A DNA stretch of 64,000 nucleotides from Gammaproteobacteria bacterium (GTDB lineage: Bacteria; Pseudomonadota; Gammaproteobacteria; Steroidobacterales; Foliamicaceae): NCBI GenBank assembly GCA_009845905.1, contig VXYS01000004.1, positions 151,285 to 215,284 of the forward strand. The letters run 5' to 3'. Every line of letters begins with the position of its first letter. Position 1 is the first letter of the stretch. The notes beneath the pieces are model-generated. The model worked only from the letters and a program-made list of their open reading frames with translations, searched no databases and was not told the DNA's origin. The translations under genes and the position numbers were made by a program. This document shows, piece by piece, positions 26,151-39,628 of this stretch.

Positions 26151-26903
26151 ATGTTGACTTATGTCATTGCGGGAATAATCGTTCTCGTGCTCATAGTCGC
26201 CTCGGTGCGAATCCTCTCGGAGTACGAGCGCGGGGTGATTTTCCTGCTCGGCCGGTTCTGGAAGGTAAAGGGACCGGGACTGATCATCGTGATTCCGCTG
26301 GTCCAGCGGATGGTCCGGGTGGACCTGCGCGTCATCGTGATGGACGTGCCCACCCAGGACGTGATCTCACGCGACAACGTATCGGTGAAAGTCAATGCGG
26401 TGGTGTATTTCCGTATCGTGGATCCCGAGCGGGCCATCATCCAGGTGGCGAACGTTTTCGAGGCCACCAGCCAGCTGGCGCAGACGACCCTGCGCTCCGT
26501 GCTGGGCCAGCATGAACTGGACGAAATGCTGTCCGAGCGCGACAAGCTCAACCAGGATATCCAGGTGATCCTCGATCAGCACACCGACGCCTGGGGCATC
26601 AAGGTCTCCAACGTCGAGATCAAGCATGTGGACCTGGACGAGAGCATGATCCGGGCGATCGCCGCCCAGGCCGAGGCCGAGCGGGCCCGGCGCGCCAAGG
26701 TCATTCACGCCGAAGGCGAAAGTCAGGCTGCCGGACAATTGTCGGAAGCCGCGTCCAAATTAGCCGAACAGGGACAAGCCTTGCAGTTGCGTTACCTGCA
26801 AACGCTTACCGAGGTGGCGAATGAGGGCACTTCCACCATCGTCTTCCCGTTGCCGATAGACCTCATTGAGCCTCTGCTGAAGATGGCCGGCAAAAAATCA
26901 TGA
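26151..26903 (+). CDS. SPFH/stomatin-like protein
   Basis: [28 protein letters not shown] and QLRYLQTL motifs. Confidence 0.95.
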
Positions 26904-28330
26904 GCCGGGAATACGACGTCATCGTGGTCGGCGCCGGTTCCGCCGGCCTGCCGGCGGCCATCTTCGCGGCCCAGGGCGGCGCCCGCGTGCTGCAGATCGA
27001 CGCCGACACGCGCGTCGGCGGGACGCTCTACTGGTCTTCCGGCCAGATCAGCGCCGCGGGCACGCGCCAGCAGGCCGCACTGGGCATCGAGGACAGCCCC
27101 GAGGAACACTACCAGGACGCCCAGCGCATCGCCTACGGCGGGATAGACCCGGTCCTCGGGCGGCTGGCGACAGGCGGCGCCGCGGACACCCTGCACTGGC
27201 TCATGGACATCGGTCTCGAGCTGGCGCCGGAAACGCCCGTCGCAGGGATGGTGCACGAACCCTATACGACGCGCCGGTACGTCTGGGGCCATGAGCAGGC
27301 GATTTCGATTCTCAAGGTGATCGAGCCCGTGCATCGTGAACTGGTGGCGTCGGGGGCGATCGACCTGCGGCTGCAGACCCGCATGACCGGCCTGCTCACT
27401 TCCGCTTCCGGGTCCGTGGTCGGAGTCAAGGCCGAAAGCAACGGCCAGGAAGTCGAATTCCGGGCGCCGAGCGTGGCGCTGACCACCGGCGGTTACGCCG
27501 CCAATCCCGAACTGTGGAACGAGGTCACGCCCTACCCCCTGCATTCCCATTGCAACCCGTTTTCACGCGGTGAAGGCATCATTGCGGCCCGCGAGATCGG
27601 CGCCAAGATCGACCGCACCGACCAGTTCCTGGCCACCTTCGCGGGCTTCCTGCAGGACCCGGGCGATCCCCTGAGCGCCTGGTTCTTCCAGCTTGCGCCG
27701 GCCTACCGGGCGCCATGGGAAATCTACGTGGACGGCCAGGGCAAGCGGTTCCTGCGCGAGGACCACCCGAGCATTCACTACAGCGAAACTTCGCTGTTGA
27801 AGCAGCCCGGCATGCGCATGGTCATCGTGTTCGACGAAGGCATACGCCAGAACGCGACGCCGATGTCCGTATTGGACAAGCAGGGCCGAGACCTGCGTCC
27901 CGAATTCAATACGCACCCGTCGTTCCAGAAGGCCGACTCCATCGAGGAACTGGCCGGCCGGTTCGATATCCCGCCGGACAACCTCGTGGCGACGGTCAAT
28001 CGTTACAACGAAGCCGTCGACAATCACGAGGACCCCGAATTCAATCGCCTGTACATGCCGCGCCGCGTCGACCGCGCGCCGTTTTACGGCATTGAGGCGG
28101 TGGGCGTGACCGTGATCAGTCCCGGCGGCGTCAACGTGAACGGCGACCTGCAGGTCGTGGACGAGTCCGACAAGCCGATCGGCGGCCTCTACGCCGCCGG
28201 CGAAATACTCGGCTTCACGCGCCTGTCGGGCGCGGCCTTCGTCGGCGGCATGTCGCTGATGCCGGCCATGACCTTCGGCCGCATGATCGGCGAGCAGGCC
28301 GCCGCCCAACTGAAAGCCCGCGCCGCCTGA
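26900..28330 (+). CDS. FAD-dependent oxidoreductase (fumarate reductase/ketosteroid dehydrogenase superfamily)
   Basis: [18 protein letters not shown] and GLYAAGE motifs; ATGA overlap with the SPFH gene. Confidence 0.85.
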
Positions 28331-28418: not shown

Positions 28419-30716
28419 CTAGTGCCCCAGGAACTGGGTGACCGGATCCTGTGGCTGGGTCTGCTGAATTGCCACCCCCGGGTCAGCCAGGCGCGAAGAT
28501 GCAGTGGCGCCGCAACTGCCGGTTTCCAGATAGCGCAAGGCGGCAGCCAGCCGGGCCTCTTGGGGATCGCCTAGTTGGCGGGTGAGATCGTCCTCGACCT
28601 GGCAGCCTTCGGTGACCGGAAGGCCGTCGTAGTATTCCTCGAAACCCTCCGCGTTGATGGTCGCGAAGGTCACGGCCCAAAGATCCCCCTGTCGCGCATT
28701 GCGATCAGGAGGGCAAAAGTACCGTGCGTATTGACCCACGGGTTTCCCGTAGGTGCGCTCACCCACCAGGGAGACGTTCTCGTACGGCTGAAGCGAGGTA
28801 ATGACGAGTTCGCTAGCGGAAGCGGACCCCCGGCCGGTGATGAACACGACATTTTCGACGTTCCGTATCGCAGATTCGTTCCGACAGCGTGCGGCCATAC
28901 TCCCCGGGTAGACGTCGCATCCGAAATAGGCCGTCTCATCCAGCGAACTGGCAAACAGGTTGTGAACTCTTCTTGACATCACCGTCAGCGTCTGGTTCTC
29001 GAACAGTTCGGGGCCGCCGATCAGGGTGGTCAGGCCATAGGCAATCGGCACGCTGCCTCCGCCGTTGTAGCGCAGGTCAACGATCAGGTTCTTGACGCCG
29101 GCGGCATTGAATTCGGCGAATTCCTGCAACAGGCGTCCGTTCGCGTCCCCGAAGAAGGTCCGAAAATGCAGGTAGCCTACTTTTCCTGCGTCGGTGTCCA
29201 GAATTCGGACGTGTTCCTCGGGAACCGTCGGGACCTCTACCTCCGCCTTGGCCATGCTGAAGGTCCGGCGCTCGCCCGATTGCTTCTCAACTTCGAAGCT
29301 GACTTCGAAGCCTTCCTCGTTGGGGCCGAATTCCTCGAAGACTCCCTCGACAGTCAGGCTGTCGACCGGTTTCCCGTTAAGGCCCACGATCCGGTCGCCT
29401 CGTTCCAGGCCAGCGTTGCCTGCCGGAGCACTCGCATAGACATCGATGACCTGGTAATAGAGCGGTTCCTCGAACACATCCACGATGACCCGTCCGCGAA
29501 ACCCGAAGATGAACGCCCGTCCATCGAACAGCATGTCCGTTTCCGCCGCGCTGCTCCAATAGCTGAAATTGCGGTCATGGGTTTCCGGCCGCCAGCGCAG
29601 GTCGTCCAGCAGGCTGTCGAGGTCGTCGTAATCCTCGATCACGATTTCGCCATAACGCGCCCGCTGCTCGGGCTCGTCGTTCCAGTAGTACCAGTCCTGC
29701 ATCAGATCGAAAACTTCCTGCCGGGCTTCCGGATAGGTGCAGGCAGACGACGCGAACCAGTCCTGGCTCAGCGTAAGCGACTGGGGCGAATTGTTGGCCG
29801 CCAGCGCCGTCACGGTCACGTCCAGTTCGCGGTCTGCGCCGCCGTTCAGCCCGTAACGGACCACGATTTCACCGGCATTCGTGCCTTCCTCGCCGCTCTC
29901 GATGTAGGCCCAGTCGGTACCGTCCGGCAGGCTGGCGCTCCAGCGCATCATCGCGTAGCCGGTGTTGCTCACCTGCAGGGAAATGCTGCCGCCGTAGCCG
30001 TCCAGTTCCGTGCTTGCAGCGGTAAGTTCCAGCATTGCGGGCGCCTCGGCCTGTTGTACGGTAACGGTGCGGGAGCCCGCATCGCCAGCCGAAACGGTCA
30101 GCTCGAATTCGCGCGCGGCGCCCGCGTTGGCGTCGATTTCGATCGCTATGGTTCCGGCGTCGGTGCCGCTGGAGCCGCTGGAGATACGCGCCCAGTCCAC
30201 GCTGCCCGCAATCGAGGCGTTCCAGTCCAGCGTTCCCCCGCCCCGGTTGGTCACGTTCACGGATGCATTGCCGCCCCCGGCTTCGGCGTCGATACGGGCG
30301 GGAGAGACGTTGAGGTTCGGCGCCCCTTCGGCCTGCCGCACGGCAACGGTGCGCGAGCTTGCTCCGGTGGCGGACACGGTCAGTTCGAATTCGCGAGCGG
30401 CGCCCGTGTTGGCGTCAATTGTGATCTGTATGGTTCCGGAATTGGTGCCGCTGGCACCGCTGGAGATACGTGCCCAGTCCACGCCGCCCGCAATGGAGGC
30501 GGTCCAGTTCAGCGTGCCGCCGCCTCCATTGGATACGTCCACCGATGCGTCGCCACCCCTCGCTTCGGCGTCGATGCTGGTGGTGGACAGTTCAATGCTG
30601 GCGGGATCCGGCGGTGGCGGCGACGGCGGCGATCCGTCGGAACCCGAACCTCCGCAGGCCGAAATCAGCACGGCCGCGGCAATGCCAATGAAGCAAGTCC
30701 GTCCCTGGCGGCCCAT
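28419..30716 (-). CDS. S41 peptidase lipoprotein with three BACON-like repeats and a PDZ domain
   Basis: Lipobox ISAC; three ~90 aa repeats (W..IS...G..N...R..TV.Q); DLRYNGGG, SASASE (Ser) and TYGK (Lys) motifs. Confidence 0.85.
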   Translation of the reverse strand: MGRQGRTCFIGIAAAVLISACGGSGSDGSPPSPPPPDPASIELSTTSIDAEARGGDASVDVSNGGGGTLNWTASIAGGVDWARISSGASGTNSGTIQITIDANTGAAREFELTVSATGASSRTVAVRQAEGAPNLNVSPARIDAEAGGGNASVNVTNRGGGTLDWNASIAGSVDWARISSGSSGTDAGTIAIEIDANAGAAREFELTVSAGDAGSRTVTVQQAEAPAMLELTAASTELDGYGGSISLQVSNTGYAMMRWSASLPDGTDWAYIESGEEGTNAGEIVVRYGLNGGADRELDVTVTALAANNSPQSLTLSQDWFASSACTYPEARQEVFDLMQDWYYWNDEPEQRARYGEIVIEDYDDLDSLLDDLRWRPETHDRNFSYWSSAAETDMLFDGRAFIFGFRGRVIVDVFEEPLYYQVIDVYASAPAGNAGLERGDRIVGLNGKPVDSLTVEGVFEEFGPNEEGFEVSFEVEKQSGERRTFSMAKAEVEVPTVPEEHVRILDTDAGKVGYLHFRTFFGDANGRLLQEFAEFNAAGVKNLIVDLRYNGGGSVPIAYGLTTLIGGPELFENQTLTVMSRRVHNLFASSLDETAYFGCDVYPGSMAARCRNESAIRNVENVVFITGRGSASASELVITSLQPYENVSLVGERTYGKPVGQYARYFCPPDRNARQGDLWAVTFATINAEGFEEYYDGLPVTEGCQVEDDLTRQLGDPQEARLAAALRYLETGSCGATASSRLADPGVAIQQTQPQDPVTQFLGH

Positions 30717-30730
30717 GGCGCAGCCTCAGG

Positions 30731-31780
30731 CTACAGCGGCTTGTGGCAGTGCCAGGTCTTGACCACCAGGAACTGGCGCGGTCCGGGCGTGATCTCGAAG
30801 CCGGCGGACGTCAGCACGCCGTCGAAGTCGTTCTCCATCAGGTCGATCGACCAGGGCTCGCCGTTGTCGCGATGGTCCATTTCAAACATGTAGCGTGATT
30901 CCGGCGACATCGGATCGCCGACCGGGAAATCGTAGATATTGAACACGCCGCCGGGGCGCAGGATCCGGTAGATCTCATGCACCACCTTCTCGGTGGCGCT
31001 GAACGGAATCTCGTGAAACAGGATGTAGCTGTTGATGACGTCGAAATGGTCGTCGTCGAAACCGGTGGCTTCGCCCCGGGCCTGTTTGAAGCGCACCGGC
31101 AGCCCCATGCCCCTGGCGCGCTTGTGAGCGTACCGCAGCAGCGGTTCGGACGGGTCCAGCCCCCAGACCTCGGCATCGGGATAGCGCTGCTTGAGTGCGG
31201 TGGCGCACTGGCCGATGCCCGTGGCCATGTCGAGCGCGCGCTCCACGCCGCCGCTCAATGGCGCCTGCCCGCAGGCCACCAGGCCGTTGTGGACCATGTC
31301 GCCGGCGTTGAAACCCATGTAGAACGCATTGGTACCGTGGTGATAGACCTCGCCCGCCAGCGCGTCGCCGACATAGCCGCCCGGCTGCAGGTGAAAGTCG
31401 AACTGGATGTAGTCCGGCATCTCAAGGTCCGGGGCCAGTTCCAGCAGGGAATCGTCGGAGTCCGCGTGCAATTCCCGCTCCAGCCGCTCGCGATCGCCGT
31501 CAACGGCGCTGAAGGCGGAGTCCCAGGTCATTTCCTGGAGGCTGCGCAGCATCCGGTTTCGAATCTGCGTGTCCGGGATGCGGTCCATGACGCGGCAGAT
31601 CGCTTCCACGTCGTCGGACTGGATACCCTCTTCCTTCAGGGCCGCGCTGCCCGCCGCGCGCGACTTGGCGCTGACGCCGCCGGCAGTGATCATCGTGCGC
31701 AAGCTCAAGGCAAAGCCGAGCCGCTGCTCGGCGTCCAGGGATGGAAGGCGGCTCAGGCCGCCCAGTTGTCCTCGATCCAT
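30731..31780 (-). CDS. Class I SAM methyltransferase B1, no signal peptide
   Basis: FHLQPGGY, LDMATGIG and ILFHE motifs. Start moved to ATG 31780 after AAGGAG. Confidence 0.85.
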   Translation of the reverse strand: MDRGQLGGLSRLPSLDAEQRLGFALSLRTMITAGGVSAKSRAAGSAALKEEGIQSDDVEAICRVMDRIPDTQIRNRMLRSLQEMTWDSAFSAVDGDRERLERELHADSDDSLLELAPDLEMPDYIQFDFHLQPGGYVGDALAGEVYHHGTNAFYMGFNAGDMVHNGLVACGQAPLSGGVERALDMATGIGQCATALKQRYPDAEVWGLDPSEPLLRYAHKRARGMGLPVRFKQARGEATGFDDDHFDVINSYILFHEIPFSATEKVVHEIYRILRPGGVFNIYDFPVGDPMSPESRYMFEMDHRDNGEPWSIDLMENDFDGVLTSAGFEITPGPRQFLVVKTWHCHKPL

Positions 31781-31790
31781 TTCTTTCTCC

Positions 31791-32069
31791 TTATGGCTCC
31801 GGCGGGGCCTCCTGCACTTCCCCGCCCCGGGCAAATCCGGCGTATATCCGCCGGACGAAGGCGTCCCGCCGCGCGGCCTCTGCCTCGACTTCTTCGGCGG
31901 ACGGCATGTAAAGCTCCACGGCGTCATCGGGCAAGGCGCCGGCATCGGCCAGCACCTTCTCCAGCAGCTCCAGGCGACGCCTCGTGGTCCACAATTCGCT
32001 GCCGAGCTGCATCACGGTTTCAACCAGATGGTCCAGCACCGGATGGTCAAAGTATTGCGGATCGTTCAT
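31791..32069 (-). CDS. Small helical protein A1, uncharacterised
   Basis: 92 aa; clear paralog of 33108-33452; ends 10 nt before the B1 start. Confidence 0.8.
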   Translation of the reverse strand: MNDPQYFDHPVLDHLVETVMQLGSELWTTRRRLELLEKVLADAGALPDDAVELYMPSAEEVEAEAARRDAFVRRIYAGFARGGEVQEAPPEP

Positions 32070-32174: not shown

Positions 32175-33044
32175 TTACGCGGACCACGCTTCCACTTCCG
32201 CCAGCAGGCCGGGGAACACCTCTTCGGTGCGCCGGCTGAAGCCGGCGGGCAGATCGCCGACCGTCATCGCCTTGCGGCCCTGGCTGCGCCAGATGTGATG
32301 GCCCGCCCACTGGCCCATTTTCATGAAGCCCATCCAGTCGTTCTTCATGATCCAGACCTCGGCGGTCTCGACCGCCGGGCGGTCCGGATCATTGAGTTGA
32401 TCCAGCCGTCCGATCAGCGTCTGCACCTGCATTTCCCAGCGCACCGGCCCGGTGGAGGCGCGGGGGAACCGATCGGGCGTGTAATACGCCGGAAACGAGA
32501 TGAACTTGTCGATCTGAAGGTAGGCCATGCCGTCGGCGACCATCCAGTCATAGACGTAGGGTCCGTAGTCCGCTGCGAACTCCGAGCGGCCGTCGCGGCC
32601 CTGACCGTGGGTCGAAAAGATATGGTTGAAGCCGCCCCCGCCCCGAAACGGCGTGAGTTCGATGGTCTCGCGCGTATAGGGGTTGACCATGGAGTCGATG
32701 GGCTCACCGGTTTCCATGTCCACGAAGTACAGCCATTCACGCAAACCCATGTCGTAGGCGCCGTCCTCGCGCGGCCTGAACACGCGCGCCGCGCAACCTT
32801 CCCAGTCGGCGAGCGGGAGGGCGTGCTCTTCGGGACGCATCCCGAACAGCCGCCCGCGGTTATAGCCGTACGTGGCTGTGCCATCCGCGCTGCCCATCAT
32901 TCGCACGGCGGCATGCATATTGGCCACGGGGTCGGTCACGTCGAAGGCGATTTCAGCCGCGCTGGCCCTTGCCGGAGCCGACCCCGCGAAAGCCATTCCC
33001 GCCACCGTGGCGCCGCCCGAAATCAGTACATCGCGCCTTTTCAT
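32175..33044 (-). CDS. DUF1838-like protein with Tat signal
   Basis: MKRRDVLISGG...PARA leader; WEG...RE..YF.D.ETGE...NPYT.E pattern. Start ATG 33044 after GGAGG. Confidence 0.7.
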   Translation of the reverse strand: MKRRDVLISGGATVAGMAFAGSAPARASAAEIAFDVTDPVANMHAAVRMMGSADGTATYGYNRGRLFGMRPEEHALPLADWEGCAARVFRPREDGAYDMGLREWLYFVDMETGEPIDSMVNPYTRETIELTPFRGGGGFNHIFSTHGQGRDGRSEFAADYGPYVYDWMVADGMAYLQIDKFISFPAYYTPDRFPRASTGPVRWEMQVQTLIGRLDQLNDPDRPAVETAEVWIMKNDWMGFMKMGQWAGHHIWRSQGRKAMTVGDLPAGFSRRTEEVFPGLLAEVEAWSA

Positions 33045-33107: not shown

Positions 33108-33452
33108 ATGAGCGAAAAAGTCGAGAAAGGGCGCAGCAGGGCCGCGCCTTTCATCCCGGCGGACACGGATGCCGCCATATTCCTGGGTAACCCGCACATC
33201 GACAACCTGATGTCCGTCGTGATCGCGCTCGGAGCGGAAATCTGGGCCGACCGCCAGCGCATCAAGGTTATCGAACGGCTGATGGAAACCGAAGGCATGG
33301 CTACGACTGAAATGGTCGAGGCCTACGTGCCGACCGACGCCGAGAAAGAGGCGTGGGAAGCGGAACGTATGGAAATGGTCGAGCGGGTCTACAGCGTCCT
33401 GTCGCGCGATACGTCGAGCGCACGTCCGTTCGGCGAAGAACGCCAGTTCTAG
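33108..33452 (+). CDS. Small helical protein A2, uncharacterised
   Basis: 114 aa; NP.IDNL...LGAEIW.DR.R...E...VEAYVP...ER...VERVY aligns with A1. Confidence 0.8.
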   Translation: MSEKVEKGRSRAAPFIPADTDAAIFLGNPHIDNLMSVVIALGAEIWADRQRIKVIERLMETEGMATTEMVEAYVPTDAEKEAWEAERMEMVERVYSVLSRDTSSARPFGEERQF

Positions 33453-33465
33453 GAGGTAGCGAAAA

Positions 33466-34713
33466 ATGATCAACAGACGATCCGTAATGGGTTTGTTCGC
33501 CGGGGCAGCATCCCTGGTGGCAGCGCCATTCGCGAGCCGCGCAGCGCAGCAACGCACCGCGCCGCCGGCGATGGGATTTTTCGAAACGCGGGACGATCTG
33601 CCGCCCCCGCCCAAGACGACCGGGAACGTACCGGGCACTCTGGCGCCGCGGGGCCGCAACGGGCGCATGGAACGCCTGCCGGAAATCGACCTGGAAAGCC
33701 GGATGGATTTCCTGATGTCGGTACGGACCTTCGCCAACCAGACGTTGAGCCAGGCCGCCGGCCGGCGCGCAAACGATATTCTGGCCAGCAAGGGCATTTC
33801 TCCGGACACGGAACTGCCGATGCAGGAAGCCATCGCCCTGCTGCAGGACGATCCCGTCGTAAGCGCAAGGACCCGGACCTGGATGTCGGTGCAGCAGCTT
33901 TCTTGGAACAACATGAAAGCCGAGTGCGAAAACAATGCCGACACCTACCTGAGCGAGATGGAAGCGGTCGACAACCGCGGTCCCGGAACCCTGGAACTGA
34001 ACCCCGACCTCGAGATGCCCGACTACACGCGCCACGAGATCCACATCCAGCCGGGCGGCTACGTGGGCAACGACTTCGCAGGGCACATGTACGACTACGG
34101 CACCAACGGCTTCTATACCGGGCGCAACGACCAGGATGCGTTGCACATGACAGCGGCCTTCGGGCTGCCGATACCGGAGGACGGCAAGGTCAAGCGCATT
34201 CTGGACCTCGGCACCGGCGTCGGCCAACTGGCCATGGCGCTGAAGGAGCGTTTCCCGGATGCGGAAGTCTGGGGCATCGACGTCGGCGGGCCAATGGTGC
34301 GGTACGGCCATCTGCGCGCGGTGGAAAGGGGGCTGGACGTCAATTTCGCCCAGCGCCTGGCGGAAGACACGCGCTTCCCCGACAACCACTTCGACCTGGT
34401 GACCAGCTACATCATGCTTCATGAAGTCTCGCCCCAGGGCACGAAGGACATCGTCAACGAGGCCTTCCGCATCACGCGCCCGGGCGGAATCTTCTACCCC
34501 ATCGACTTCAACCTGAAGAACCCGTTTCCCCGGACGGCATACGGCCAGTACCGGCGCTGGTGGGACCATCGCTGGAACAACGAGGTGTGGACGATCAAGT
34601 ACCGCACCAACGGGCTGCAGGACCTTGTCCGCGCCGCCGGGTTCGATCTGAATGAGGAGGGGCCGGTCGCCCTGCCGCGGTTCGGCGTGATGAACGCCAC
34701 CAAGCCCGCATAA
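33466..34713 (+). CDS. Class I SAM methyltransferase B2 with Tat signal
   Basis: MINRRSVMGLFAG...ASRA leader; IHIQPGGY, LDLGTGVG and IMLHE motifs; paralog of B1. Confidence 0.85.
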   Translation: MINRRSVMGLFAGAASLVAAPFASRAAQQRTAPPAMGFFETRDDLPPPPKTTGNVPGTLAPRGRNGRMERLPEIDLESRMDFLMSVRTFANQTLSQAAGRRANDILASKGISPDTELPMQEAIALLQDDPVVSARTRTWMSVQQLSWNNMKAECENNADTYLSEMEAVDNRGPGTLELNPDLEMPDYTRHEIHIQPGGYVGNDFAGHMYDYGTNGFYTGRNDQDALHMTAAFGLPIPEDGKVKRILDLGTGVGQLAMALKERFPDAEVWGIDVGGPMVRYGHLRAVERGLDVNFAQRLAEDTRFPDNHFDLVTSYIMLHEVSPQGTKDIVNEAFRITRPGGIFYPIDFNLKNPFPRTAYGQYRRWWDHRWNNEVWTIKYRTNGLQDLVRAAGFDLNEEGPVALPRFGVMNATKPA

Positions 34714-34717
34714 CGGC

Positions 34718-35557
34718 GTGCGCGACAGGAACGGGAAGCTTACCCGCCGGCAGACGCTCGCGGGGGCTGGCGCCGCGCTCGTCGCTTCGGCGGCGGGGTC
34801 GGTCGCGAAGGCCGAGGCCGGGGAAGAATCCAAGACCTTCATCCTCGTACACGGCACCTGGCTGGGCGGCTGGAGCTGGCAGTTCGTGCGCCGCATCCTG
34901 GAGCAGGCCGGCCACGACGTATACGCGCCTTCGCTGACCGGCTGCGGCGACCGCGCCCACACGACAAGTCCGGACGTGGGTCTCGACACCCATATCCAGG
35001 ACATCGTCAACATCATCGACTTCGAGAGCCTCGATGACGTCATCCTCGTCGGACATTCCTTCGCCGGCATGGTCATTACCGGCGTCGCGGATGCAAGGCG
35101 CGAGCGCATACGGCGCATCGTCTTCTTCGATGCGCTGGTCCCGGCGGGTGACCGCATGAGCGGCGTGAGCCGCACGCCCGAGGGAGAACTGTCCCAATAC
35201 TTCATCAAGCGCATGGAGAAATTCGTCGACGGCTACCGGATGGACTACTTCGACTCCTACCCCCTCAAGATGGTGGTGCCGGATTCCGAACCCGAGCTGC
35301 AGGCGCTGCTGAAGGAGAAGATCACGCTCCATCCGATGCGCGCCTGGAGCGATGTGCTGGAGCTGAAAAACGGCGGCTGGGAGGGCCTGCCGCGCACGTA
35401 CATCCACTGCGTGGGCCAGGAATACTCGATGACCAGCGACTTCATGGTCGGCCCCGCGCGCGAACCCGGATGGCAATTCATCGAAATGGACATCCCGCGC
35501 GGCGGCATGCTGACCCACCCGGAACTGGTCGCCGAGACCTTCGTCAATCTGACCTGA
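34718..35557 (+). CDS. Alpha/beta hydrolase (methylesterase-like) with Tat signal
   Basis: TRRQTL leader; LVHGTWLGGWSW and nucleophile GHSFAG. Confidence 0.88.
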   Translation: MRDRNGKLTRRQTLAGAGAALVASAAGSVAKAEAGEESKTFILVHGTWLGGWSWQFVRRILEQAGHDVYAPSLTGCGDRAHTTSPDVGLDTHIQDIVNIIDFESLDDVILVGHSFAGMVITGVADARRERIRRIVFFDALVPAGDRMSGVSRTPEGELSQYFIKRMEKFVDGYRMDYFDSYPLKMVVPDSEPELQALLKEKITLHPMRAWSDVLELKNGGWEGLPRTYIHCVGQEYSMTSDFMVGPAREPGWQFIEMDIPRGGMLTHPELVAETFVNLT

Positions 35558-38227: not shown

Positions 38228-38820
38228 TGGGGCTCCCTGTGCTGGAATCGATAGACAAACGCCGGGGGCACGTTCAGCGCGGCGACTCCCAGACGCGATG
38301 CCTTGAGTCCGAGGCTGTCGAGCGTGCGCCTGCCGACCGGGCAAATGCCCCCATAGGTGAACTGATGAAAGGCGCCGCACTCGCCGAGCAGCGCGAAGGC
38401 CGCCGTCAGCAGCCGGCGCTTTCTGGCCTCCGAAAACAGCAGCAACGGCAGGCCGCTGATGATGTAATCGACCTGGCCCGTCAGGTCCTGCAAATGCTCG
38501 CCCAGCGACAAGGCGTCGCCATGCACGGTGCGGGCGCCGGGGAAGTTCTCCCGGAGGATTTCGACGAATCGCTCGTCACTGTCCACCAGGCACAGGTCCC
38601 CTTCGGATACGCCTGTATTCAGGATGGCCCGGGTCAGTGCGCCCGTTCCCGCTCCCACTTCGACAACGCGCGCGCCGGCCCCACAGCCGCGGGCCATGAG
38701 CCGGCCCAGCGATGCGCCGCTGGGCACCACCGCGCCCACCGAGCGCGGATCGCTGACCAGGCTGCGGAAAAACCCGCCAAGCTGGCCGTTCCCGTTCGGC
38801 AGGGAGCCGTTGTTCGTCAC
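38224..38820 (-). CDS. Phospholipid/ornithine-lipid N-methyltransferase-like (rhizobial PmtA type)
   Basis: PRSVGAVVPS, VVEVGAGTG, ISGLPL and FHQFTY motifs. Confidence 0.75.
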   Translation of the reverse strand: MTNNGSLPNGNGQLGGFFRSLVSDPRSVGAVVPSGASLGRLMARGCGAGARVVEVGAGTGALTRAILNTGVSEGDLCLVDSDERFVEILRENFPGARTVHGDALSLGEHLQDLTGQVDYIISGLPLLLFSEARKRRLLTAAFALLGECGAFHQFTYGGICPVGRRTLDSLGLKASRLGVAALNVPPAFVYRFQHREPQ

Positions 38821-39590
38821 ACCGGATCCTGTTGGAGATACTGCAAGGCGTCGCGCCAGATCCCGACCTCGGGAGTGATCGCGTTAAGGACCGTGAAGGT
38901 CGTGTTGATCGCCTTTTCGCTGACCGCGCATTCGACCAGAACCGAGGCGCTGTCCTCGCGGCAGATCATGAACGGCCCGCCCGGCGGGATGGGTTCCGAT
39001 TGCAGGAGCATGATGCCGTACTCGCCGCCGGGCCTGTCCGAGAGACCGGGCGTGCGCGAAATGGTGTAGTGGATTCCGGAAGCGCGCAGCACAGCCTCGC
39101 CTCTGGCCTTGGCGTCCATCGAGGGAGCAAGTCGCTCGGGCATCCAGCCGGCGGGCGACCGGCCGGCGGACGAAAGCAGAACGAAGCGCTTCACGCCCGT
39201 GCGTATGGCCACCTCCGCCGTATCGGCAACGCCCGTGTGGTAGACGTCGTACAGGTCGCTGACTTCGACCTCGGAGAAAGTCACGCCCACAGCATAGATG
39301 AGAGCATCCACGCCTTCGAGCGCCGGACCCATGGATTCCGGCCTGCGCACGTCGGCGCTGATCCAGGTCACGCCGTCTTGCGGCGGCTGCGCGCCGGCTC
39401 TCCTGGAGATGCCCCGCACGGCATGCCCGCGCGCGAGCAGATCTCCGACAATAAACTTGCCGGTGCGTCCGGTCGCGCCCAGAACGGCGACGGTAAGGGG
39501 GGTTTCGGCGGCGGCGGAAAGCCTGGCGCCCAGCAGGACGGACGAGCCCAGGGCGAGACCGTTGAAGAGGATGGTGCGGCGTGTGGTCAT
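38817..39590 (-). CDS. NAD(P)-binding atypical SDR (NmrA-like) with twin-Arg leader
   Basis: VLGATGRTG Rossmann motif; TRRTILF leader; start ATG 39590. Confidence 0.8.
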   Translation of the reverse strand: MTTRRTILFNGLALGSSVLLGARLSAAAETPLTVAVLGATGRTGKFIVGDLLARGHAVRGISRRAGAQPPQDGVTWISADVRRPESMGPALEGVDALIYAVGVTFSEVEVSDLYDVYHTGVADTAEVAIRTGVKRFVLLSSAGRSPAGWMPERLAPSMDAKARGEAVLRASGIHYTISRTPGLSDRPGGEYGIMLLQSEPIPPGGPFMICREDSASVLVECAVSEKAINTTFTVLNAITPEVGIWRDALQYLQQDPV

Positions 39591-39628
39591 GGCAGTACCC
39601 GCCCCGGTCGGCGGCTCCACTTTCGGTG

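Follow-up and report, generated by a model that had tools for sequence, protein, structure and literature searches.

A conserved twin-arginine leader on a clade of methyltransferase-fold proteins suggests a possible periplasmic use of S-adenosylmethionine

Methylation by S-adenosylmethionine (SAM) is treated as a cytoplasmic activity because SAM is made and recycled in the cytoplasm. We analyzed a 64,000-nucleotide (nt) stretch of the genome of a gammaproteobacterium of the Foliamicaceae (assembly GCA_009845905.1, contig VXYS01000004.1, positions 151,285 to 215,284), hereafter the window, which encodes at 33466..34713 on the forward strand a 415-residue protein, B2. From its open reading frame, Pfam and an AlphaFold model, B2 has the fold of a class I SAM methyltransferase preceded by a twin-arginine translocation (Tat)-type leader at the N-terminus. 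A small signal-less protein, A2, is encoded next to it, and a second module of the same two families, A1 with a leaderless paralog B1, lies on the reverse strand nearby. We regard the full account, in which B2 would be exported by Tat loaded with its cofactor and partnered by A2, as about as probable as not. A twin-arginine leader that is invariant across a whole methyltransferase clade points either to a hidden extracytoplasmic supply or retention of SAM or to use of the fold without net methyl transfer, and either would be new enzymology; if true, periplasmic SAM chemistry would upset the view of SAM enzymology as an exclusively cytoplasmic matter. A literature search returned no paper on periplasmic or Tat-dependent SAM methyltransferases, none containing the phrase "periplasmic methyltransferase", and none describing the B2 family.

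Several described systems share single features with this locus. The glucose-fructose oxidoreductase of Zymomonas mobilis is exported by Tat with NADP tightly bound, and is like B2 in combining a Rossmann-type fold, a nucleotide cofactor from the cytoplasm and, as proposed here for B2, export in the folded state. Redox cycling leaves its NADP intact, in contrast to SAM, which methyl transfer uses up; the two proteins are unrelated in sequence. The Tat hitchhiker pairs HybO-HybC, DmsA-DmsB and MelC1-MelC2 resemble A2 and B2 in that the genes for a protein with a signal and for one without are neighbors, in some cases with the stop codon of one overlapping the start codon of the next; the A proteins have no similarity to any of these pairs and also accompany leaderless methyltransferases. 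Trm112, a small zinc-knuckle protein, binds and activates several class I methyltransferases, and the A family is comparable in being one small family for many methyltransferases, with some arrays holding a single A for up to eight methyltransferase genes, but A is a predicted helical hairpin without homology to Trm112.

CysG and BelI act in the biosynthesis of cystargolide and belactosin as carboxyl O-methyltransferases that depend on SAM and Ca2+ (PDB 9fcd, 9fd3 and 9fce). Their metal is bound by a His-His-Asp site and the substrate carboxylate by an N-terminal Arg, and a dedicated hydrolase later removes the methyl ester that they form (PMC11408123). The two enzymes are the best sequence match of B2 in the PDB (E = 1e-11, B2 residues 242-347) and are among its top fold matches; the His-His of their metal site corresponds in the alignment to H319-E320, a His-Glu pair, in B2, and the removal of the ester by a hydrolase recalls the hydrolase gene directly after B2. 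The similarity covers the 106 residues of the Rossmann core alone, too weak for an inference about substrate, and CysG and BelI are cytoplasmic proteins of about 215-230 residues from actinomycete secondary metabolism, without a Tat leader, the 170-residue N-terminal cap or an A partner. B2 probably does not belong to the CysG/BelI family; as a lead only, metal-assisted methylation of carboxylates may be considered for its own family, with the hydrolase encoded 4 nt past B2 possibly reversing it. The extracytosolic flavinylated reductase systems, finally, combine ApbE, FMN_bind proteins and FAD_binding_2 reductases, and the word methyltransferase is absent from a survey of such systems (Meheust et al. 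2021, PMC8238504).

The twin-arginine leader of B2

The ATG of B2 stands 9 nt downstream of the Shine-Dalgarno sequence AGGAGG (33451..33456, forward strand, by sequence reading), which overlaps the A2 stop codon at 33450-33452. The leader spans residues 1-26 (MINRRSVMGLFAGAASLVAAPFASRA; 33466..33543, forward strand) and is supported by conservation of the arginine pair and by codon-level selection. Its motif, N-R-R-S-V-M, has the RR of the (S/T)-R-R-x-F-L-K-like motif; after the RR come 19 uncharged residues and then R25, so that a weakly hydrophobic uncharged h-region, a basic c-region and a candidate signal peptidase site, the sequence hallmarks of Tat substrates, are all present. The candidate cleavage site is S24-R-A26, small-x-small and not strict A-x-A, and by the -3/-1 rule the leader is likely cut after A26. 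An initial annotation made from the DNA alone had described a twin arginine, a hydrophobic core and an A-x-A site; the arginines and the uncharged core hold up, and the last element is to be corrected to S-R-A. Between leader and mature domain lies a proline-rich linker (33544..33645, forward strand) of variable length, in which a 14-residue indel among close orthologs separates 415- or 416-residue from 401-residue forms; across the leader clade, the spacing between RR and PRG, the first motif conserved in the mature part, ranges from 30 to 57 residues.

Conservation of the leader extends well beyond close orthologs. A homolog search returned 1556 B2 homologs, and among the best 120 (identity down to 50%) an RR pair occurs within the first 25 residues in 115, the remaining five being truncations or start-codon miscalls. 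None of 84 leader-bearing relatives, which reach down to about 45% identity, departs from RR, and their consensus is M-[IL]-[DN]-R-R-[TS]-L-[FLM]-G-A, where both positions after x are hydrophobic. A basic c-region residue follows the uncharged stretch in 79 of these 84 sequences; an A-x-A follows the h-region in 83, a count of little weight in leaders so rich in alanine. We also scored 122 B-like frames in 79 loci drawn from one-genome-per-species collections: a Tat-type leader was scored in 101, in one case (L017) falsely, and the leader-negative frames belong to the B1 clade, to copies cut by contig ends and to one leaderless member of an eight-gene array. Over leader codons 2-27 in 20 close orthologs, synonymous polymorphism (pS) was 0.35 and non-synonymous polymorphism (pN) 0.07 (pN/pS = 0.195), so the segment is translated and under purifying selection.

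The initial annotation had allowed that the true start might lie downstream of the RR motif. The alternative start M68 (in MERLP) is ruled out: relatives have L, F, Y or H at that position, while the leader is conserved. Together with the AGGAGG-supported ATG, these results confirm the twin-arginine leader that the annotation had proposed and support, at the level of sequence, its being genuine, family-wide and under selection. The host genome encodes TatC (PF00902, 226 bits, C8:591908-592540), and we consider export of B2 through Tat very probable.

Two other fates of the leader bear on this estimate. B2 might not be exported, the RR segment serving instead as a retention, membrane-association or partner-binding element of an enzyme that is cytoplasmic like its paralogs. 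Such a role would suit SAM as a cytoplasmic metabolite and the failure of generic Tat-signal profiles to score the leader, but the combination of invariant RR, hydrophobic pair, uncharged stretch and basic c-region across 84 sequences is the Tat pattern, and operons are shared with Sec- and Tat-exported proteins, some of the genes abutting or overlapping; we think it improbable. Alternatively, an uncleaved leader could anchor B2 to the periplasmic face of the inner membrane, as in Rieske proteins. The departure of S-R-A from strict A-x-A and the variable-length proline-rich linker that follows, as in a tether, speak for an anchor, to which we nonetheless assign little probability: relatives carry A-x-A after the h-region in 83 of 84 cases (with the reservation about alanine-rich leaders given above), and the short h-region, with its many Gly, Ala and Ser residues, is typical of cleaved Tat signals.

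Fold, candidate active site and leaderless paralogs

Pfam Methyltransf_25 aligns over its full length (model 1-97 of 97) with residues 245-341 of B2 (E = 6.6e-20), and in Pfam and NCBIfam both B1 and B2 match generic methyltransferase domains alone, over residues 240-345. The AlphaFold model of B2 (mean predicted local distance difference test, pLDDT, 87; predicted template modeling score, pTM, 0.86) has residues 1-37 disordered, a cap at 74-167 and a Rossmann core at 244-346. From Pfam and PDB matches the SAM-binding core comprises residues 242-347 (34189..34506, forward strand) and holds the glycine-rich motif I (E/DxGxGxG) as LDLGTGVG at residues 246-253, followed by D272, AED, FD310 and H319-E320. 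Upstream of it, model secondary structure and conservation delimit a family-specific N-terminal region (33646..34188, forward strand) with a PRGxxGRxERLPxLDLE motif, the cap formed by helices between residues 74 and 167, and an HIQPGGY loop. Foldseek and PDB sequence searches with the core returned generic class I methyltransferases alone (Coq5, CysG/BelI, farnesyl pyrophosphate methyltransferases and CouO/NovO), and neither sequence nor fold search gave a PDB match for the N-terminal cap. In sequence and predicted structure B2 has the features of a class I methyltransferase.

A family alignment of 152 sequences, 51 leader-bearing and 101 leaderless, shows that H193, G253, D272, D310, H319, E320, R335 and E373 and the SAM motifs are invariant or nearly so in both sets. 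G253, D272, D310, H319 and E320 have at most four exceptions each; D272, the acidic residue at the end of strand 2 in the ribose-binding position, is found in 149 sequences and is Glu in the other three, and E300-D301 and D310, in keeping with the acidic residue expected near the adenine, are also conserved. In the N-terminal region, R62, G63, R70, H193, P196 and G197 are invariant or nearly so. That putatively exported and non-exported members keep the same pocket is well supported by this alignment. The initial annotation had proposed the same chemistry in two compartments, and this proposal fits the invariance of SAM-motif and candidate catalytic residues in both groups, because the active site is shared with 13 leaderless paralogs of the host genome.

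Over 337 residues B1 (349 residues; 30731..31780, reverse strand) shares 40% identity with B2 (E = 7e-81), with the match starting at B2 residue 62. The longest B1 frame reaches back to 31945; the supported start is the ATG at 31780, which has AAGGAG upstream of it and lies 10 nt past the A1 stop, and a stop codon directly precedes MDRGQ in B1 orthologs. B1 thus begins at the homologous mature region with no leader, as had been annotated. It is a signal-less paralog of B2, as claimed, in the sense of being leaderless, and not a leader-deleted copy. The 2.8-Mb host assembly holds 16 B paralogs, three with leaders (B2, C8:138909 and C7:555015) and 13 without, which makes leader-bearing and leaderless paralogs in one genome a built-in comparison. 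A maximum-likelihood tree groups the leader-bearing proteins in a single clade (Shimodaira-Hasegawa-like approximate likelihood ratio test, SH-aLRT, 100). B1 falls outside this clade, its long branch forming an unresolved three-way split together with two further leaderless paralogs, so it represents a separate leaderless lineage. An S41 peptidase lipoprotein with BACON repeats is encoded at 28419-30716 (reverse strand), beginning 14 nt past the B1 stop, and follows B1 in most close-clade genomes, which places a leaderless methyltransferase in an operon with an exported protease.

This arrangement raises the possibility that B1, with A1, forms a complex with B2 and is carried out with it, so that both modules would be periplasmic. 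The head-to-head order of the modules in most close-clade genomes and the exported lipoprotein gene 14 nt past B1 favor such co-export, but the other 12 leaderless paralogs are scattered away from the leader-bearing copies, and B1 is only 40% identical to B2 and outside its clade; we judge it highly improbable.

Leaderless proteins prevail in the family at large. A profile search of 1.84 billion representative proteins returned 340 clusters at E < 1e-30, most of them leaderless. In a second tree, in which RRxLLK-type leaders were labeled by eye, the leaderless clusters P0124/P0127, P0133, P0134 and P0147 fall, with weak support, next to or within the leader clade, which suggests that the leader trait changed more than once. 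In uncultured aquatic Alpha- and Gammaproteobacteria the leader-bearing clade has expanded into tandem arrays and to as many as about 20 modules per genome; four to eight leader-bearing paralogs stand in tandem in some Rhodospirillaceae and in further Alphaproteobacteria. One such array (L032:1-12748) consists of diverged leader-bearing methyltransferases with a single A gene and one leaderless member. Arrays at L045, L065 and L071 have no A inside, and those genomes hold 23-27 A paralogs elsewhere; across five array-carrying genomes there are 13-27 A paralogs each.

The small partner protein and the fate of the cofactor

A2 is a 114-residue protein predicted to form a helical hairpin (33108..33452, forward strand, from its open reading frame), with helices at 29-62 and 77-99 and residues 1-24 disordered in its model. 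As the initial annotation had stated, it is signal-less and encoded immediately upstream of B2; A2-type proteins had no export signal in any genome examined. A1 (92 residues; 31791..32069, reverse strand), the partner of B1, is its paralog (33% identity, E = 1e-14) and is without the N-terminal extension of A2. The A proteins match no Pfam or NCBIfam family, with Pfam giving chance-level hits for 33 A homologs, and the A2 model matched no PDB fold.

The linkage of A to B is extensive. An A-like frame adjoins B in 59 of the 79 loci, and nearly all of the approximately 11 A paralogs of the host genome stand directly beside a B gene, in either order, most of the 16 B genes being next to an A. In the two other leader-bearing modules of that genome, the A stop overlaps the B start. 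Similarity among A paralogs was correlated with similarity among the adjacent B paralogs in the host genome (Mantel r = 0.76, p = 0.0004), also by rank after removal of a near-duplicate pair (r = 0.41, p = 0.013), which shows at the sequence level that A-B modules duplicate and diverge as units and is in itself no proof of contact. Ahead of FLGNP, the A partners of leader-bearing B proteins have an additional N-terminal motif, FIxxDxD, and A1 and other A proteins of the leaderless type are without it; this difference probably reflects one evolutionary event and is weak evidence. An apparent natural A-B fusion (P0168, 494 residues) proved to be an artefact of assembly or gene calling, since its junction and C-terminus read frameshifted and its Tat leader is internal.

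What A2 does can be narrowed to some extent. We considered a Tat proofreading chaperone of the TorD/DmsD or NapD kind and rejected it, as A has no family or fold match; moreover, A also stands beside leaderless methyltransferases and is therefore not a leader-specific chaperone. With respect to Tat hitchhikers, A2 has no signal, adjoins the leader-bearing B2, and belongs to a family that diverges together with B. These gene data are best matched by a subunit or activator, one that may leave the cytoplasm together with B2, and any role of A2 in export is a guess.

In the account of cofactor-loaded export given at the outset, B2 would fold in the cytoplasm and most likely bind its adenosyl cofactor there. 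TatABC would then carry the folded protein to the periplasm, and signal peptidase would probably remove the 26-residue leader. A2 would form a module with B2, either riding out bound to it or readying it for export, and periplasmic B2 would act on a small molecule alongside exported neighbors, here a Tat-leader hydrolase and in relatives a flavinylated FMN-binding protein and a Tat-leader flavin adenine dinucleotide (FAD) reductase. In the most economical reading, SAM would travel as a bound cofactor and not come from a periplasmic pool, as NADP travels with the Zymomonas enzyme.

Several points weigh against this account. SAM would be consumed and not recycled, and we know of no periplasmic SAM supply or removal of S-adenosylhomocysteine (SAH). 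A one-shot enzyme would appear too costly, because the family forms tandem arrays of four to eight genes. The generic Tat-signal profile PF10518 gave the B2 leader no score in a permissive scan, though it barely scores the leader of the neighboring hydrolase either (E = 0.6), and none of the NCBIfam Tat-signal models scored it. Fold and sequence searches with B2 returned generic class I methyltransferases and point to no substrate. A also stands beside leaderless methyltransferases, and some arrays have one A or none nearby. The SAM difficulty would be relieved by a periplasmic SAM supply of a kind not yet known, by a cofactor that is retained or recharged, or by use of the fold without net methyl transfer, which are alternatives to one another.

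If a supply exists, B2 could be an exported but otherwise ordinary multi-turnover methyltransferase, with some route, such as an unrecognised exporter or external SAM entering through porins, bringing SAM in and removing SAH. Its SAM-binding motifs are conserved as in the leaderless paralogs, and tandem arrays of four to eight leader-bearing paralogs suggest catalytic and not one-shot use. No transporter gene is conserved next to the family among the gene clusters common to the 79 loci, the literature search gave no paper on periplasmic methyltransferases, and we know of no periplasmic SAM pool, all of which leads us to consider such an enzyme unlikely. B2 could also be exported to act without net methyl transfer, with SAM or SAH as a fixed structural or electrostatic cofactor, as a methyl shuttle recharged from a periplasmic donor, or with the pocket serving for ligand binding alone. 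There is precedent for SAM or SAH as a fixed cofactor in SAM-dependent hydroxylases and pericyclases of the methyltransferase fold; the supply problem would vanish; other chemistry could draw on H193, H319, E320 and E373 as ligands of a metal or substrate; and easy switching between leader-bearing and leaderless states, seen in the one leaderless array copy and in clusters P0133 and P0134, placed close to or within the leader clade, would be accommodated. The motifs of B2 nevertheless match those of ordinary methyltransferases, and its closest solved relatives, CysG and BelI, truly transfer methyl groups, making a non-transfer role quite unlikely in our view.

Genomic neighborhood

Export of cofactor-loaded B2 would place it among other proteins with export signals. 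An alpha/beta hydrolase with a Tat-type leader (KLTRRQTLAGAGAALVASAAG; 34718..35557, forward strand; Pfam Abhydrolase_6, E = 9e-21) begins 4 nt past the B2 stop and follows B2 in most close-clade genomes and in L020; in most close-clade genomes the two A-B modules also stand head to head. Between the two divergent modules of the window lies a DUF1838 protein with a Tat-type leader (MKRRDVLISGGATVAGMAFAGSAPARA; 32175..33044, reverse strand; PF08894, E = 4.4e-18). Among the loci searched, the two closest genomes, L025 and L089, are the only ones with a DUF1838 gene here; other clade members have about 200 bp in its place. The host genome has 24-27 DUF1838 paralogs, many with RR leaders; a literature search for a functional study of DUF1838 found none, and mentions of the family were incidental.

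A different operon is conserved in a well-supported subclade of Steroidobacteraceae-like and other genomes (L053:4134-9202, L047, L048, L060, L063, L067 and L077). It consists of a membrane protein and ApbE, followed by A, the methyltransferase and FMN_bind, with a convergent FAD_binding_2 reductase that has a Tat leader. The FMN_bind protein has a Sec signal and an SGAT flavinylation motif, and its gene abuts or overlaps that of the methyltransferase by 0-4 nt (7095/7095 in L053, 7071/7074 in L060). The small membrane protein (146-178 residues) matches no Pfam or NCBIfam family, and the ApbE copies have no obvious signal peptide. Tat-leader FAD_binding_2 reductases of the same family also flank the alphaproteobacterial methyltransferase arrays. 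These flavinylated reductase genes are thus shared with the described systems by the operon of one subclade, whereas in the window no ApbE or FMN_bind gene is next to B2, and its FAD_binding_2 protein is leaderless. The gene for the latter (flavocytochrome c/TcuA-like; 26900-28330, forward strand) is coupled to an nfeD-stomatin pair, and the host genome has about 11 such FAD_binding_2 genes, several within 8 kb of B paralogs.

Around the homolog P0086, the locus L090:1-17185 holds three family methyltransferases and an A gene together with three Rieske/VanA_C oxygenases, two DUF1838 proteins, three alpha/beta hydrolases, an FAD_binding_4 oxidase and a beta-propeller protein, and looks like a catabolic island. 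Judged from gene content, these contexts place the leader-bearing methyltransferases among extracytosolic redox and hydrolytic enzymes, and look catabolic. A broader proposal, possible but in our estimate doubtful, is that SAM-based chemistry takes place in the periplasm, with a large family exported by Tat as holo-enzymes with a small partner, the cofactor kept or recharged, and acting alongside exported hydrolases and flavinylated reductases on dissolved organic substrates.

The window encodes one further nucleotide-cofactor fold with an export signal, an NAD(P)-binding protein (NAD_binding_10/NmrA-like; 38817-39620, reverse strand) with a TRRTILF leader, and in other genomes relatives of this protein with Sec or Tat signals occur near leader-bearing methyltransferases.

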